From a virus, in the UHGV virus genome UHGV-0366079: a stretch of DNA of 8,355 nucleotides; one strand, written 5' to 3'. A program made the translations under genes and the position numbers. The first letter of the stretch is position 1. Every line of letters begins with the position of its first letter. This document shows, piece by piece, positions 837 through 6,440 of the stretch. Under the pieces are notes generated by a model that did no database searches, was not told the origin of the DNA, and saw only the letters and a program-made list of their open reading frames with translations.

Positions 837-1315
837 TGACAACAAGTGATGCCATCGCTTTAGCTGCGCTTGTAGTATCGATTTACACTATCATATCGTC
901 AGAAATGAAATCGAGAAAAAGCGATAGAGAACAAAAGGTTATAAAGGATGAGCAAGACAGGTTACGTAAGTTGCTTCTGGAAAAAGAAACAAAGTCAGCA
1001 ATTAATGAGATGAAAGCTGAGCTTGGTGCTCGCCTCGTAAAAATAGCCAAAAACAACTATAGGCTCAAGATATTTAATAGAGGGAGAGTTGAGGCTAAAA
1101 ATATAGAGATTCATTTCCCTGATAACGATGGAAATGAATATCTTTCAATGCATGATGTAGAAGATAAATTTCCATATGAGGTATTACACCCGCAACATGG
1201 AATTGAAATTTTAGCGGGAATAAGCTTTGGAAGTAAAACTAAATACCGAATAAAACTCATATGGGATGACAATTATAAAAGAAGAAATGAAGAGGAGTTT
1301 TTCATTTCTATATAA
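836..1315 (+). CDS. Hypothetical membrane-anchored protein, 159 aa: N-terminal TM helix, charged coiled-coil-like segment, C-terminal domain
   Basis: ATG 836-838 overlaps the upstream stop TAA 834-836 (TAATG, translational coupling); AAGGA about 10 nt upstream. Hydrophobic aa 5-22, then a K/E/R-rich helix. Visibly AT-rich. No family recognised. Confidence 0.6.
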   Translation: MTTSDAIALAALVVSIYTIISSEMKSRKSDREQKVIKDEQDRLRKLLLEKETKSAINEMKAELGARLVKIAKNNYRLKIFNRGRVEAKNIEIHFPDNDGNEYLSMHDVEDKFPYEVLHPQHGIEILAGISFGSKTKYRIKLIWDDNYKRRNEEEFFISI

Positions 1316-1344
1316 ATTGGTTCGCACAATGACGTTATGCTAAA

Positions 1345-1383
1345 GAGGCCGCTGCGGGATTCGATTTTCGCAGCGGCCTTTTC
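1345..1383. terminator. Rho-independent terminator ending the plus-strand 3-gene operon, possibly bidirectional
   Basis: 11-bp GC-rich stem aggccgctgcg (1346-1356) / cgcagcggcct (1369-1379), 12-nt loop, then TTTT (1379-1382). Sits 30 nt after the stop at 1315. A-rich on the 5' side, so it may also act on the minus strand. Confidence 0.55.
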
Positions 1384-1412
1384 AACATAACGAGTCGTAC
1401 ATTATGCGCACC
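1381..1412 (-). other. dif-like XerC/XerD recombination site with an 11-bp central region (candidate phage att site)
   Basis: Minus strand reads GGTGCGCATAA TGTACGACTCG TTATGTTGAAA. E. coli dif as I recall it is GGTGCGCATAA TGTATA TTATGTTAAAT. XerC arm 11/11, first 4 central nt identical, XerD-like arm 9/11 if a 5-nt longer spacer is allowed. The XerD-like arm abuts the terminator stem. Confidence 0.5.
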
Positions 1413-1450
1413 AATAGTAAGGATGGCGGGAACTGGCGTTACCGGTGCCG

Positions 1451-1684
1451 TCATTGGTCACAGACCGTAATCCACTGGCCCAGGACGTCTTTCAGGCAAT
1501 GTTGGCATAAATCCAGTTTTAAGCGATTACTGTCACCAAAAATTGAACCGTATCCAGCTAAGTGATTAACAGACAGAAACTCATTGAACTCAATGTCATC
1601 TACCACCGTCTTCGCATGGCGACCACAGCGATCGCAGGTCTTCGCACATAACATTACAGTATCGCTGGATGTGAAAAATTGCAT
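1451..1684 (-). CDS. Hypothetical small Cys-rich (putative zinc-binding) protein, 77 aa; phage cargo candidate
   Basis: ATG at 1684..1682 with strong SD GAGGAGA 5 nt upstream. Cys at 13, 17, 20 and CQHC at 61-64 suggest a zinc ribbon. Same strand as the phage genes, downstream of gIV. Confidence 0.6.
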   Translation of the reverse strand: MQFFTSSDTVMLCAKTCDRCGRHAKTVVDDIEFNEFLSVNHLAGYGSIFGDSNRLKLDLCQHCLKDVLGQWITVCDQ

Positions 1685-1755
1685 TTTATCTCCTCGTAAT
1701 GCTGCCGCGCCGAATCAGCAATAACGCTAAAAAAACAGAATTGTTCGGCTTGGCC

Positions 1756-1800
1756 AACCCCTGACACTAACAAAAGCAAGTTTTGTTAGTGTCAGGGGTT
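1756..1800. repeat. Perfect 20-bp inverted repeat with 5-nt loop (hairpin/cruciform); candidate packaging signal, origin hairpin or operator
   Basis: aacccctgacactaacaaaa (1756-1775), loop gcaag, ttttgttagtgtcaggggtt (1781-1800): exact reverse complements. Begins 2 nt after the stop of the 102-aa ORF. The minus-strand T-run lies about 20 nt beyond the stem, so it is not a classical terminator. Confidence 0.8.
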
Positions 1801-1801
1801 A

Positions 1802-2110
1802 TCATATAAACCAATAGACCGTCCTTACGCCATTCTGGTTATCAATAACATAGCCGCATTGTTTCCTTAAAAATTCTTCTGCTAAATCAATGGCTTTTAC
1901 AGAAATCTCATAAGAAGGAAGTAAAGTGTATCCTTTCCCTTCACTGGCAGCTGCTTTGATCGCATCCAGAGTATTATCAATCAGTAACAGAGCAAGTGAT
2001 GCTTCATTTACCTGAGCCGAAGAACTTCTGGCTGCAAGTGTCATTGTTTTTGCTTCTTCCGCTGTAATCGTTCGTTCTGCCAGAGCAGATAAAATCCCAT
2101 AAGAATCCAT
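1802..2110 (-). CDS. Hypothetical protein, 102 aa; phage cargo candidate directly downstream of gIV
   Basis: ATG at 2110..2108 with GGGGT about 6 nt upstream. Helical N-terminal half, beta-like C-terminus. No family recognised. Co-oriented with the phage genes. Confidence 0.55.
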   Translation of the reverse strand: MDSYGILSALAERTITAEEAKTMTLAARSSSAQVNEASLALLLIDNTLDAIKAAASEGKGYTLLPSYEISVKAIDLAEEFLRKQCGYVIDNQNGVRTVYWFI

Positions 2111-2130: not shown

Positions 2131-2190
2131 GTCCATTTGATGGATAGCGAGCAGGGCTCACGCACCTACCCGCTATCCATCAAAGTGGAC
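2131..2190 (-). terminator. Large imperfect hairpin at the gIV 3' end; candidate gIV terminator and/or packaging-signal hairpin
   Basis: Arms gtccatttgatggatagcg (2131-2149) and cgctatccatcaaagtggac (2171-2190) pair over 19 bp with one bulged nucleotide; 21-nt loop. Overlaps the gIV stop (2180-2182). In Ff phages the packaging-signal hairpin immediately follows gIV (established knowledge). Confidence 0.4.
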
Positions 2191-3445
2191 GAATGATATG
2201 TGCTGTAAGCAAAATATACATAATACGCTGTTCATTGCTGTCTGCCTTGCTACTGAAAATCCAGCCTATAAGAGGAATTTTACTTATAACTGGAACTGAA
2301 CGCTCGGCATTGCTGAACGATGAATCGATAAGCCCCCCCAATAACAACGTCTGACCATCCTTAATCTGGACTGTCGTCTGAATCTGGCGCTGATTAGTAA
2401 TAATATCGGATGCCTGATCATCATTGCTGATTGAATCAGCGCGAGTGTCGATAGTCAGAACTAGTTGCCCGTTACCCATGACAACAGGCGTTACCTTGAG
2501 AGAAACGCCAACATCATGACGCTCGATAGTCTGAAACGGATTATTTACCCCGGCAGATTCGCCCGTTACCTTTCCGGTGATAAACGGCACATTCTTACCT
2601 ACGGAAATGTAACCAGTCTGACCAGACTGAGTAAGAATACGCGGCGTTGAAATCACCTTAGAGCGTGAATTACTCTGGACAGCACGCAGAGACAGCGCCA
2701 ACACGTTACCATCAAAAATACCAAAAGAACCGCCCGCCGTAGAAAGAGCGCTACCCAGTGCAGAAGTATTAAAGCCCCCCGCAACCTTATGACCGGATGC
2801 AGAACCTGCCGCAAACGATAAATCAACGCCATCAGACAAGCTGGTTTCAAACATCAGCGACTGAATGAGAACCTGATCGCGGGCAACATCCACAGAATTG
2901 ATAAAATCGGACAGAACCGGCAGCAGCTCGTCAGGCGCAGAAACAATCAGCGAGTTATTGCCTGGATAATCCACGACATTACCACCACCATTAGAATCAA
3001 GATAAATTTTAATCAGTTGCTGAACATCGGACGATCTAACTTTTGTCAGCTTAAAATTTCTGACCGTAAGCGCCACAGGTACTGGCTGGTAAGATGGCTC
3101 AGAAGGAAAAGTATCATAAGACTGGTTATCAGAATCATCGGAATCCGAAACCATCTGTGAAGGTAATTTAGACGGCAAAGAGACTACCGCAGGATTGCCA
3201 GAAAGCATGACAAAACCGTTAGCATTCAGAACAGACTTAAAGAAATCATCAATATTTGTTGGATTAACATCAGCATTAAATACGGTTACGTTTCCTTTAA
3301 TATCAGGATTAACAATAACAGGCTTGCCAGTTTTTGAAGAATACCACTGAACAAATGAGCGAACAGATGAATTATTTAAATTAACAGTTTCAGCAGAAAC
3401 GCAGAATGAATAGGCAAATAAAAAAGCAACAATAACAGAGCGCAT
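2180..3445 (-). CDS. IV: Filamentous-phage pIV outer-membrane secretin (virion export channel)
   Basis: Start corrected to ATG 3445 (MRSVIVAFLFAYSFCVSA signal peptide) with AGGAG about 11 nt upstream; the track ORF start 3538 overlaps gI. Collinear with M13 pIV as recalled (NNS..R.FV.WYS, VPFITG.VTGESA.VNNPFQTIER, LLLGGL, SKIPLIG). 421 aa. Confidence 0.9.
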   Translation of the reverse strand: MRSVIVAFLFAYSFCVSAETVNLNNSSVRSFVQWYSSKTGKPVIVNPDIKGNVTVFNADVNPTNIDDFFKSVLNANGFVMLSGNPAVVSLPSKLPSQMVSDSDDSDNQSYDTFPSEPSYQPVPVALTVRNFKLTKVRSSDVQQLIKIYLDSNGGGNVVDYPGNNSLIVSAPDELLPVLSDFINSVDVARDQVLIQSLMFETSLSDGVDLSFAAGSASGHKVAGGFNTSALGSALSTAGGSFGIFDGNVLALSLRAVQSNSRSKVISTPRILTQSGQTGYISVGKNVPFITGKVTGESAGVNNPFQTIERHDVGVSLKVTPVVMGNGQLVLTIDTRADSISNDDQASDIITNQRQIQTTVQIKDGQTLLLGGLIDSSFSNAERSVPVISKIPLIGWIFSSKADSNEQRIMYILLTAHIIRPL

Positions 3446-3452
3446 AATAATA

Positions 3453-3827
3453 TTACTCCTGACAGGTAACAGTCTGTAAATAACGGCCTTTTCTAATAAC
3501 AACACGACAGGCATCTTTAATATCAACGGAATAACCATCTTTAATCAAATCAAAATACTGATATTTCATACCTTTTGCATCAACAAACGTAACGGAAACG
3601 TCAAAGCCAAGTTGTGAAAAAGAATTAATAGAAAGTCGGGGTAAGTCACTGGACGAATCAGGCGTTACCGCCCTCGCCTGTTCAGCATAAGCAGATTTAA
3701 TAGCTGAGATTTCATCAACATTCTTTCCAGACTGGAGCCAGAAACCAAACGCAAGCCCCAGCGCCAAAAAAGAAAGCATTAATATAAGACGGTTCGATTT
3801 GCGAAAATAAATTTTAGTGAGGCGCAT
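3453..3827 (-). CDS. XI: pXI, in-frame internal restart product of gene I (C-terminal 124 aa with the TM segment)
   Basis: Internal ATG at Met241 of pI (MRLTKIYFRK), the same position as pXI in Ff as recalled, with AGAGGA upstream. Expression not provable from sequence. Confidence 0.5.
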   Translation of the reverse strand: MRLTKIYFRKSNRLILMLSFLALGLAFGFWLQSGKNVDEISAIKSAYAEQARAVTPDSSSDLPRLSINSFSQLGFDVSVTFVDAKGMKYQYFDLIKDGYSVDIKDACRVVIRKGRYLQTVTCQE

Positions 3828-4547
3828 ATAATAATTAAATCCTCTGTGAACAGAAAATTGACCGTGCGTGATAAATGGTGGCAAAAGCGAAAATGCGCCA
3901 TGAGGATAATTATCTGTGAACGCTTGTTTGGTATTGTAAGCAGAATAAAGAGATTTTCCTGTATATATCCATTTATCAACAGTGATTGAATTAACATTAT
4001 CACCATATTTGACAATGCCAAAGTGTACCTTTGGTAAAGAAAATCTCGCCCCTGAAACCAAATTCATAATGGAGCCAACAAAAGGAATGTTTAATTTATC
4101 TGAACGGCGACAATAAACAACATGCTCAGCAAGCGCCAGACGAGCTTGCTTATCCATTATCGAAATATCCTGAATCAAAAATATAATATCCCAGCCTAAT
4201 TTTCTGGCATGTAAAAACCAGTCAATAACAGGTTGTCTGTCTTTATCACCCCATGAGCGGGAATTAAACCAAGTACCACATTCATCAAGTACAAGGAGGC
4301 CATTACGGGATTCATCGTAAGATGTATTCCCAATACCAATAGCAAGTAAATCATTTAATGAAGGCTTGTCAGGAATGCGAATAACGCGCGTTTTTTTCGC
4401 ATAACGCCCAACCATAGGCATATTATGCAATTTAAGATCAAGATTAGTGGCAACAGGACAACCCTTAGCAAGTCTTTCCTGTATTCTGGAAACACTAACA
4501 AGTGTCTTGCCTGAGCCTAATTTGCCTGTTACTACATAAACCGCCAT
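3453..4547 (-). CDS. I: Filamentous-phage pI assembly ATPase (Zot-like, Walker A)
   Basis: N-terminus MAVYVVTGKLGSGKTLVSV carries Walker A GxxGSGKT; long blocks match M13 pI as recalled (LLVLDECGTWFN.RSW, RQP.IDWFLHARKLGWDIIFL.QD, ALAEHVVYCRR). One TM segment near aa 254-271. Start abuts the gVI stop (TAAATG). 364 aa. Confidence 0.92.
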   Translation of the reverse strand: MAVYVVTGKLGSGKTLVSVSRIQERLAKGCPVATNLDLKLHNMPMVGRYAKKTRVIRIPDKPSLNDLLAIGIGNTSYDESRNGLLVLDECGTWFNSRSWGDKDRQPVIDWFLHARKLGWDIIFLIQDISIMDKQARLALAEHVVYCRRSDKLNIPFVGSIMNLVSGARFSLPKVHFGIVKYGDNVNSITVDKWIYTGKSLYSAYNTKQAFTDNYPHGAFSLLPPFITHGQFSVHRGFNYYMRLTKIYFRKSNRLILMLSFLALGLAFGFWLQSGKNVDEISAIKSAYAEQARAVTPDSSSDLPRLSINSFSQLGFDVSVTFVDAKGMKYQYFDLIKDGYSVDIKDACRVVIRKGRYLQTVTCQE

Positions 4548-4889
4548 TTAAATCACCCTGTTTGCATAATCAAGAAACTTTTGTTTTAAATCGAAAACAA
4601 AAACACTGATACGAGTAACCATAATAACGTTAACACACGCCTGAAAATGGTCAGGCAATACAGACGCCATTAAATGGGAGAAATCAGCAGGTAAACCGTT
4701 ATACATGACCTCAGCAAGGTACTGCATTAAAAGCGTAACAGTTGTTGTAATTAATGCGACCAATGCAAAGGCGATTAATCCTGTTCTGGTAGCAAGTCGA
4801 GCTAAAAAACTCGCCACATAGCCAATAAACAAAGGAACAAGACCAATAAGAAAACGCAACAATGCAGGAATACCTAATAATAAAGGCAT
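4548..4889 (-). CDS. VI: Filamentous-phage pVI minor coat protein
   Basis: [14 protein letters not shown]... hydrophobic, about 113 aa, similar to M13 pVI as recalled (LLGIP.LLRF, FD.KQK). ATG 4889..4887 overlaps the gIII stop TGA 4891..4889 (TGATG); AAGGGGGTGA RBS upstream. The track start at 4892 is a GTG one codon upstream. Confidence 0.85.
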   Translation of the reverse strand: MPLLLGIPALLRFLIGLVPLFIGYVASFLARLATRTGLIAFALVALITTTVTLLMQYLAEVMYNGLPADFSHLMASVLPDHFQACVNVIMVTRISVFVFDLKQKFLDYANRVI

Positions 4890-6151
4890 CACTCACCCCC
4901 TTTGCGAAGCAATGAAGTTAAAGAAGTAAAGACATACCAGAACGTAAGGCAATAAAAAACCCATGAAAGAACATCTTTAATAGTCAGTAATTTATCGCAA
5001 CCAATATCAATCTGATAAACCTCACCGGGAAAAATAATAAAATCAGAGCAGCCGTTACCATTGGGTAAATTAGGCAGCATAGCACCTTTATTTAAAAACG
5101 CTTCCCATAAAGCACCGTGAGAATCCTTTTCAATTCCCAATTCAGAATCAGCCAAAGTAGAAGCGCCATCTAATTCAGAGTCGCCCTTTCCATAACGAGA
5201 ATCACCACCTGAAGGGTCAGCAAAACGGCCAGCCCCCCGCGTAAGATTGTTAATGGAATCGTCAAGACGATTTATATTATTCCTGGTTTGTTCATCGGCA
5301 TTTTTTTTATCATCTGATGAAGTGTCTTTCTCCGTTAATTTATCATGAATATCGCTGGCTATTTTGGGTGAAGCACCTTCGATCGCAGACTGAATATCAC
5401 CTTTAGAAAGACTGGAACCACTAGAGCCACCGCCAGAACTACCGCCAGAACTACCGCCACCGGACTCACCACCGCCAGACTCACCACCACCGGACTCACC
5501 ACCGCTGGACTCACCACCGCCAGACTCACCACCACCATTTTGGGGGGTTGAGGGTTTATCAGAGGGGTCAGCTACAGCACCTGTAGGCTTCCATGTTGCA
5601 GCGCAAACAGTACCATCACCCTGACAAACAATGACACCAGTAGCCTCATATTCACAGCCGTTATAGTAGATATAGCGACCACCATCATATGAATCAACAT
5701 TATTAAATACACCTTCTTCTGGCGGCTTCGCTTCACAAATTTCTTCTGGTGTCGGGTCAGTAGGTTTTTCATCAGGAACAGAACGCTGAATATTACCAAC
5801 AATATAAGCCGTTAAAGACCAATATTTATCCTTCTGCCCTGGTGAATCGCTGTAAGTACAATCGCCAGTAAAAACAAGACGGAATTCAGAATCAGGCCAG
5901 ATACCCTCATAAGTTGGTTTAATCCGAGTAAATACACTCTGAGCACTGGATTTAGCACCCTGACAAGCGGAGGCCTGCATAGCAGCATCAATATAGTAAA
6001 CCGTTATCTTAGAGCCATCCTGATTGGTTATTTGCTTACTTTCAGCGTAGGCAGAACTTTGATAAGTGGATTTAGTAATGCTTTCCCATGACTCAGCATG
6101 TGAAAAAGGAGAAATGAGGACAGCGGAAAGAATTAATATTTTCCTTCTCAT
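4889..6151 (-). CDS. III: Filamentous-phage pIII adsorption protein: divergent N-terminal domain, N1 (TolA-binding)-like domain, Gly-rich linker, C-terminal membrane anchor
   Basis: Start set at ATG 6151 ([19 protein letters not shown] signal peptide); the track extension to 6295 overlaps gVIII and the terminator. [26 protein letters not shown] resembles M13 N1 (YEGCLWNATGVVVCTGDETQCYGTW); GGGES repeats; C-terminus CDKL...FWYVFTSL resembles M13 CDKI...FMYVFSTF. 420 aa. Confidence 0.85.
5424..5536 (-). repeat. Tandem 15-nt repeats encoding the Gly/Ser/Glu linker (GGGES units) of pIII
   Basis: Plus strand shows iterated ggactcaccaccgcc / agactcaccaccacc units, translating on the minus strand to [39 protein letters not shown]. 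Confidence 0.8.
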
Positions 6152-6160
6152 AGTAACCCG

Positions 6161-6188
6161 CTTTAATAAAGGGGCAACGAGTGCCCCT
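6161..6188 (-). terminator. Intrinsic terminator between gVIII and gIII
   Basis: Minus strand AGGGGCA-CTCGT-TGCCCCT (7-bp GC-rich stem, 5-nt loop) followed by TTTATT, 10 nt after the gVIII stop. Ff phages carry a terminator at this position (established knowledge). Confidence 0.6.
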
Positions 6189-6197
6189 GAGTGAAAT

Positions 6198-6440
6198 TCA
6201 AACCGCTTTTGAAGAGAATTTTTTGAAAATACGAATGGCAAGCCCAGCGCCAACCACAGCAACAACAACAGGCCATACTTTACCAATGAGATCATTTGCC
6301 TGAGTCAACAAAGCATCCATTGCCTGACCTGCATAATCAGTACCACCTGTAGCGCCTTCAGCCGCAAAAGAACTTGCAGAAATAAAAAGCGCAGTTGAAG
6401 CCAGAGCAATTTTATATTTAACAGTAGACAGAATTTTCAT
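6198..6440 (-). CDS. VIII: Filamentous-phage pVIII major coat protein
   Basis: 80-aa precursor: signal peptide ending SSFA with cleavage before AEG, hydrophobic core [15 protein letters not shown], basic C-terminus [11 protein letters not shown] (compare M13 KLFKKFTSKAS). GGAG 9 nt upstream of ATG 6440. Confidence 0.9.

Follow-up and report, generated by a model that had tools for sequence, protein, structure and literature searches.

The closest described counterparts of the element reported here are cis-acting hairpins on single-stranded DNA. The minus-strand origin of the Ff phages (hairpins B and C) and the ssi signals of conjugative plasmids, an established concept of which Frpo of F is one example (PMC7690428), are like it in that an orientation-specific hairpin lies in cis on the strand that enters single-stranded, and a dependence on host enzymes would explain conservation across phages and plasmids of the same hosts. 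They are unlike it in their build, since the present element has one 20-bp stem, too short to mimic a −35/−10 pair, whereas Frpo comprises 328 nt (PMC7690428). G4-type primase origins differ from the element in that no conserved CTG is present at its hairpin. Hairpin A of Ff and IKe is, like the element, a long packaged-strand hairpin downstream of gene IV; our element, however, does not adjoin gene IV, keeps its sequence in phages with unrelated assembly modules and is also plasmid-borne. The folded attP of CTX-type phages is likewise a hairpin that is functional on the single-stranded phage genome, and the phage carriers of the element possess such an attP about 350 nt away, but the palindrome itself has no dif-like XerC or XerD arms and the actual attP lies elsewhere (1310–1415). 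Two phenomena considered below are of known kinds, viz. hairpin signals on the packaged strands of filamentous phages and the correction of quasipalindromes. To our knowledge, the conversion of the single strand to the double-stranded form has not been defined for the Xer-integrating filamentous phages (CTX, YpfPhi, CUS-1 class), and neither have complementary-strand priming sites outside the leading region of F-like plasmids.

The phage and its perfect palindrome

The stretch of DNA that we have analysed (UHGV virus genome UHGV-0366079, 8,355 nucleotides, hereafter the window) corresponds to a circularly permuted E. coli prophage of the filamentous CUS-1/YpfPhi type, which integrates at dif; the CUS-1 and YpfPhi family matches this phage type (PMC4266046). 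Prophages in 47 complete E. coli genomes match the window over its full length at 98–99.6%. The prophage of strain UM146, of which the window is a circular permutation, adjoins hipBA, and at the left junction in UTI89 an intact dif site is followed by phage sequence. The features referred to in this work are as follows.

1310–1415, minus strand: CTX-type folded attP, with two inverted dif-like sites that form a forked hairpin on the packaged strand
1451–1684, minus strand: cargo ORF for a 77-aa Cys-rich protein, downstream of the conserved module; no Pfam family
1698–1803, minus strand: conserved non-coding module of about 106 nt, composed of the hairpin, GGCCAAGCCG, which is invariant, and another, predicted stem
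1704–1754, minus strand: predicted second hairpin (packaged strand GCC-AA-GCCG ... CGGC-GC-GGC), absent from the plasmid homologues
1756–1775, minus strand: hairpin arm, the 3' arm on the packaged (window minus) strand and the best-conserved arm sequence in the family
1776–1780, minus strand: hairpin loop, CTTGC on the packaged strand
1781–1800, minus strand: the other hairpin arm (5' on the packaged strand), in which relatives of 99.5% identity have other bases at 1787, 1789 and 1794
1802–2110, minus strand: 102-aa cargo ORF upstream of the hairpin; no Pfam family, and other ORFs in this place in related phages
2136–2184, minus strand: separate hairpin directly after gene IV, with 20-nt arms that are 90% complementary
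2180–3538, minus strand: secretin pIV
3453–4547, minus strand: pI/Zot
4548–4892, minus strand: pVI
4889–6295, minus strand: pIII
6198–6440, minus strand: major coat protein
6644–6961, minus strand: pV
6973–8067, minus strand: pII (Phage_CRI)

The palindrome at 1756–1800 reads AACCCCTGACACTAACAAAA-GCAAG-TTTTGTTAGTGTCAGGGGTT. A repeat search recovers two arms of 20 nt each (1756–1775 and 1781–1800) that are 100% complementary (20/20 pairs) and enclose a 5-nt loop, and a single nucleotide separates the palindrome from the stop codon of the 102-aa ORF (1802–1804, minus strand). The first-pass annotation of this DNA, which had described a perfect 20-bp palindrome immediately after this ORF, was thus correct on both points. 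It was also right to call the palindrome conspicuous, which lies far above chance: the longest perfect stem (with a loop of 3–10 nt) in 60 dinucleotide-preserving shuffles of the window measured only 7–11 bp, and about 6e-8 stems of 20 bp would be expected. The same annotation had pointed to folding of the packaged strand as a check, and the hairpin does fold on this strand, the surrounding 151-nt region reaching −34.5 kcal/mol as single-stranded DNA (z = −6.65 against shuffles) and the hairpin alone −21.7 kcal/mol. Its remark that simple termination is a weak explanation, there being no T-run, agrees with our scan of 1300–2300 on both strands, which found no sites resembling intrinsic terminators or sigma-70 promoters. 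An intrinsic terminator was rejected on these grounds, and also in view of the A/T-rich top of the stem and of the tail, which is GGCCAAGCCG or ATCATATAA. A known RNA family was rejected as well, since a scan of the whole window against Rfam (E up to 1) matched no curated covariance model at 1698–1803. The loop is CTTG, CTCG, CTTGT or TTTA in relatives.

The region 1310–1415 is a CTX-type single-strand attP for XerCD integration. It folds on the minus strand at −31.2 kcal/mol (z = −7.0), and its dif-like sites are GGTGCGCATAA...TTATGTTGAAA and GGTTCGCACAA...TTATGCTAAAG. The folding of this attP on the minus strand confirms that the minus strand is the one packaged. The palindrome was considered as an Xer attP or dif-like site, which would have 11-nt XerC and XerD arms about a centre of 6–8 nt, and rejected, since the dif-like arms are found not in it but at 1319–1345 and 1385–1413. 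Part of the attP hairpin (window 1318–1389) has copies of 90–94% identity on about 440 plasmids, most of them conjugative (e.g. L326 3001–3071); the copy in pJIE186-2 stands directly after a gene of the STM4504/CBY_0614 family, and its second dif-like half has decayed. These plasmid copies represent either a cargo cassette of phage origin or the remains of an attP.

In CTXphi, the place taken here by the two small ORFs on either side of the palindrome belongs to ctxAB (PMC4266046). In some distant inoviruses and plasmid-borne remnants, though not in all carriers, homologues of the 77-aa ORF adjoin the hairpin; those in L228 (6518–6727) and L293 are 54–57% identical, and a further one is present in L212 (3629–3937). 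At the place directly after gene IV that the separate hairpin (2136–2184) occupies in the window, strain 7CC and If1/L013 carry a hairpin of other sequence. The hairpin at 2136–2184 is probably the terminator or packaging hairpin of the window phage and the positional analogue of that of Ff and If1.

The conserved module in phages and plasmids

On the packaged strand, the module at 1698–1803 comprises, besides the hairpin, the sequence GGCCAAGCCG, which never varies, and a loop that the likewise invariant CGGCGCGGC closes; the module is 72–84% identical in relatives whose flanking ORFs are other genes. The state that is conserved is an imperfect hairpin, usually with 16–18 of 20 pairs, together with its 3' flank. 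The pairs of the second stem (1704–1754) are invariant, so that covariation speaks neither for nor against this predicted structure. The carriers are dif-integrating filamentous prophages of Enterobacterales, belonging to the CUS-1/YpfPhi family and including an If1-like prophage. A dif or dif-like site lies close by in every carrier that was examined for one, and the hairpin has the orientation of the core genes in all of the 13 inovirus loci compared (13/13).

The genes that accompany the module vary widely. It occurs with a YpfPhi-type assembly module in L031, L007, L022 and L125 (pIV 26–28% identical, the other proteins undetectable); with an If1-type Rep and without the pII and pV of the window in L013 and L059; with an If1-type Rep (71% identical to that of L013) and a window-type pV (91%) in L240; and with a pV that is only 37% identical in L228 and L293. 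A plus-strand origin or a pV binding site was rejected as the identity of the element because the carriers L013 and L059 have another Rep and another single-stranded DNA-binding protein. The same structural gene block is found with either window-type pII/pV or an If1-type Rep (L059, L240, L013). Most of L013 matches If1 at 93% identity, but in place of the 120 nt that come after the gene IV hairpin in the If1 intergenic region it has a block with the module, attP and cargo. L013 is an If1-like phage that has gained attP, the hairpin module and cargo; these combinations show modular exchange and a route from the episomal to the integrating state. The stretch 7316–8454 of the If1 record (L210, NC_001954), which is labelled "ORF320, homologous to R-pyocin", aligns with the 371-aa Rep gene of L013, and the deposited annotation of If1 gene II therefore looks outdated.

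The element was not found in the free phages If1, IKe and Ff, and a search of deposited phage genomes with the module and its most divergent copy gave no match; deposited phages differ from the carriers in having no sequence similar to it, and a resemblance to the Ff, IKe or If1 intergenic regions, or to the origin of G4, is thereby excluded. A genome scan for TTGGCCAAGCCG...CGGCGCGGC returned mostly chance matches in G+C-rich genomes, with real loci in Yersinia pestis, Brenneria alni, Klebsiella spallanzanii, Erwinia mallotivora and L206 among the matches listed. A second scan, of viral sequences with a degenerate hairpin pattern, also yielded mostly chance matches; L289/L298, an unrelated tailed phage, was dropped as a carrier. 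The locus in K. spallanzanii (L140 4400–7300) lies at dif and holds pII, pV, a coat-like gene and the hairpin, without pIII, pVI, pI and pIV, and is either a truncated prophage or an RS1-like satellite.

At least 5000 plasmid records from Escherichia, Klebsiella, Salmonella and Shigella also have homologues of the hairpin; 81% of these plasmids are conjugative. Among 5426 E. coli genomes, 3318 carry such a homologue. The number of copies is one per phage and usually two per plasmid. The phage and plasmid copies share the hairpin and about 15 nt of its 3' flank (in the sense of the folding strand), and the plasmid copies have wobble positions of their own. One IncF plasmid, pHS1496_3, was examined in full. 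Its first copy lies downstream of traT and the traT terminator and its second downstream of a DUF2726 gene, beyond finO; a covariance-model search of the plasmid, leading region included, found none beyond these two. Some other plasmid matches, in Klebsiella and Pantoea, are inovirus remnants which retain a homologue of the 77-aa ORF. We found no description of this hairpin family, or of its sharing between dif-integrating inoviruses and F-like plasmids, in the limited literature that can be searched, although a dyad symmetry in the region after traT may be mentioned in older work. The element is not mentioned in a review of YpfPhi (PMC4266046).

The strand on which the hairpin folds was assessed from pair counts in 17 aligned versions, plasmid copies included. 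On the packaged or transferred strand 93.2% of the cells pair, with 32 G-T wobble cells at 10 positions, against 84.4% and a single wobble cell on the opposite strand. Changes on both sides are seen in 9 of the 20 pairs, with shuffle and slid controls nowhere near, and every imperfect allele is 2.6–6 kcal/mol more stable on the packaged or transferred strand. The hairpin thus folds better on the window minus strand, which is both the packaged and the coding strand. The wobble asymmetry could in part reflect strand-biased mutation in single-stranded DNA rather than selection, and covariation is weaker evidence here than in RNA because template switching by itself produces two-sided changes.

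On plasmids, the same strand appears to be the folding strand. Transfer of F starts at nic and runs 5' to 3', with the leading region as the first part to enter, and the leading genes have the transferred strand as their template. In pHS1496_3 the tra and leading-region genes all share a strand, and its complement, on which both hairpins fold best, we take to be the transferred strand; this comparison covers two independent loci of one plasmid. Relative to the flanking genes, the hairpin is in sense orientation in phages and antisense on plasmids, which argues against a shared role in RNA and for a role in single-stranded DNA.

Perfect pairing as a rare allele

E. coli genomes and IMG/VR prophages yielded 14 different hairpin versions. 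Perfect pairing is limited to three of them, viz. those of the window, L029 and strain 7CC, the remaining variants having 14–19 of 20 Watson-Crick pairs and mostly 16–18. UM146 and similar prophages have 17/20 pairs, L016 has 18/20 and the UTI89/YpfPhi type 16/20, and relatives that are 99.5% identical to the window have 17–18/20. The first-pass annotation had proposed conservation of the palindrome in related phages as a check on its importance; the hairpin element is indeed conserved, but its 20/20 pairing is not, close relatives showing 16–18/20. Matches to at least 80% of a 161-nt query (window 1700–1860) are present in 49 complete E. coli genomes; identity to the query is 100% in one, which may itself be the source of the window, so that the exact perfect allele is rare. 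The folding energy is −22 to −24 kcal/mol for perfect alleles and −10 to −18 kcal/mol for imperfect ones.

A comparison of the window with L005 points to the way in which the perfect form may have originated. The two differ at 5 positions in 1087 bp, of which 3 (1787, 1789 and 1794) fall within 8 nt of one arm (P = 6e-5 for such clustering). Each of the three changes is a substitution to the complement of the other arm that restores a Watson-Crick pair, and no indels are involved. This is the pattern shown by the quasipalindrome-associated template-switch mutations of E. coli (PMC7202029), and it is seen at these positions against L005, L001, L009 and L033. The likeness to the described mutations lies in the clustered substitutions of one arm to the complement of the other and in the imperfect close relatives; unlike those mutations, the present case is a natural prophage polymorphism and not the product of a reporter assay, and its direction and mechanism are read from comparison only.

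The perfect form would accordingly have arisen by an intramolecular template switch during replication, i.e. by quasipalindrome correction, and its perfect pairing would be a mutational by-product without special function rather than the conserved or selected state. We regard this account of the anatomy and mutational origin of the palindrome, taken together, as very probable. L029 is a perfected form of the L016 type, which has G, not T, at 1762; within the clade of the window, perfection would thus have arisen either twice or once with a compensatory double change, and the lineages of L029 and 7CC possibly reached it independently of the window. An error of assembly or polishing at an inverted repeat might also produce perfect arms, and the exact match in only one complete E. 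coli genome would fit such an artefact; but perfect alleles of other sequence exist in L029 and 7CC and the change consists of three clean substitutions with zero indels, which makes this explanation scarcely credible. The window provides a clean natural example of quasipalindrome correction, and it cautions against taking the perfection of a "perfect" palindrome as a sign of stronger function.

Candidate functions and minor observations

The reading that we favour for the conserved hairpin, with a probability of roughly 35–40%, is that of a putative complementary-strand initiation site, i.e. a minus-strand origin or ssi. It would act in cis on single-stranded DNA just inside the new cell, where SSB would leave the folded stem exposed, a host factor rather than a phage factor would recognize it, and a host priming activity would start complementary-strand synthesis at the stem. 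Consistent with such a site, the hairpin forms on the strand that enters single-stranded (32 wobble cells against 1; a difference of 2.6–6 kcal/mol), and its orientation is fixed at 13/13 inovirus loci and in both IncF copies, which lie on the transferred strand. The argument for a host factor draws on the lack of the element in free If1, IKe and Ff and on L013 (93% If1), which gained the module along with attP. Neither of the two best-defined priming routes can be recognized in the element. The stem is too short for a −35/−10 pair, which makes the RNA-polymerase route of Ff improbable: a 20-bp stem cannot hold both hexamers of an origin of the Ff or Frpo type, and 1300–2300 contains no promoter-like site. 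As regards a primase origin of the G4 type, CTG is present 3' of the hairpin in some members, with no conserved position.

A wider reading, which we put forward tentatively and consider slightly less probable, is that of a shared "entry element" on incoming single-stranded DNA, exchanged horizontally between dif-integrating phages and F-like plasmids and read by a host factor, which would either prime by an undescribed route or shield the DNA from a nuclease or defence system. If this were true, such an element would be present on thousands of plasmids and hitherto unannotated. In either case, a short and widely shared hairpin on the incoming strand offers a concrete sequence that is easily mutated and tested in both systems.

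The first-pass annotation had listed packaging signals, minus-strand origins and protein-binding sites as possible functions. Its general class, a cis signal on single-stranded DNA, is consistent with the conserved element and its packaged-strand fold, whereas perfect 20/20 pairing as the key trait is not upheld; among the functions listed, a minus-strand origin appears the best on the sequence comparisons and a packaging signal the weakest. A packaging hairpin would mark the DNA for assembly and lie at the pVII/pIX tip of the virion, the arrangement known from hairpin A of Ff, and a stable packaged-strand hairpin of fixed orientation would suit this task, as would the fact that the hairpin and attP are the two longest local hairpins of the YpfPhi/UTI89-type genomes, with no strong other one after gene IV. 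In the window, however, the place directly after gene IV, where an Ff-type packaging hairpin would lie, belongs to the hairpin at 2136–2184, a place that is kept in 7CC and If1/L013, and both this hairpin and the 102-aa ORF intervene between gene IV and the element. Moreover, 72–84% identity is maintained between phages whose assembly proteins are unrelated or 27% identical, the free relatives must package their DNA without the element, and its homologues are found on at least 5000 plasmids, which are not packaged. Conservation across assembly modules is not decisive in this regard, because the packaging signals of Ff and IKe are said to be interchangeable, but overall we consider a packaging role improbable, if less clearly so for the YpfPhi type. 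We judge similarly the possibility that the hairpin is a module border or mobile hairpin, viz. a recombination hotspot or hitch-hiker which exchanges cargo ORFs and brings little or no benefit to replication. In its favour, the element often lies at the edges of variable cargo ORFs, differing small ORFs (of 102, 82, 77 or 65 aa, or none) flank the hairpin, the copies on F-like plasmids are in two variable regions (traT-traD and downstream of the DUF2726 gene), phage and plasmid copies have about 15 nt of flank in common, and the arms begin with AAC and end with GTT as in integron attC sites. But no recombinase, integrase or transposase accompanies the element, it has neither target-site duplications nor terminal repeats, and a proliferating MITE would not be expected to stop at one copy per phage and two per plasmid. 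The likeness to attC extends to AAC...GTT only: the flanks outside these are not complementary as R boxes would be (R'' RYYYAAC and R' GTTRRRY), and with no integrase in the window or its relatives an integron attC site was rejected.

The start of the hairpin 1 nt after a stop codon, the downstream ORF that begins 15–25 nt past the module in two phage types, and wobbles that would be G-U in the sense transcript of the phage are all features expected of an element acting in RNA, such as a block to 3' exonucleases or an RNase III site for the mRNA of the upstream cargo ORF, or an insulator of the downstream ORF. Yet the strand that pairs well is antisense to the neighbouring tra genes in F-like plasmids, so that no single RNA polarity fits both settings, 7CC and L013 have no following ORF in that orientation, and T-run, terminator call and Rfam family are all lacking; this possibility seems to us slightly more doubtful than the preceding two. 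More remote still is an operator, in which the palindromic symmetry would serve as a duplex site for a dimeric protein, either a phage repressor or the 77-aa Cys-rich protein, whose homologues adjoin the hairpin in distant inoviruses and plasmid remnants. The 77-aa ORF is absent from many carriers (UTI89/YpfPhi type, L013, L153, IncF plasmids), and a duplex operator predicts neither a 45-bp site with mismatched halves nor strand-specific wobble pairs, which leaves an operator very improbable. A host-recognized signal on incoming single-stranded DNA would accommodate all of the observations, and complementary-strand initiation, the known function of such signals, is the one that we prefer for the conserved hairpin.

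Several other regions of the window were noted in the course of this work. The stretch 8228–8355 together with 40–68, upstream of pII, is 70% identical to part of the major intergenic region of If1 and is a candidate regulatory or origin region; the region upstream of pII also contains a 10-bp perfect hairpin (AACGTGCAGT/ACTGCACGTT) that is present in the YpfPhi type too. In E. coli EC5502, 17 places in one genome match the window, a pattern that tandem arrays of the prophage or the repetition of fragments could explain. The Gly/Ser-rich linker of pIII is encoded by seven overlapping copies of a 15-nt unit (window 5408–5542).
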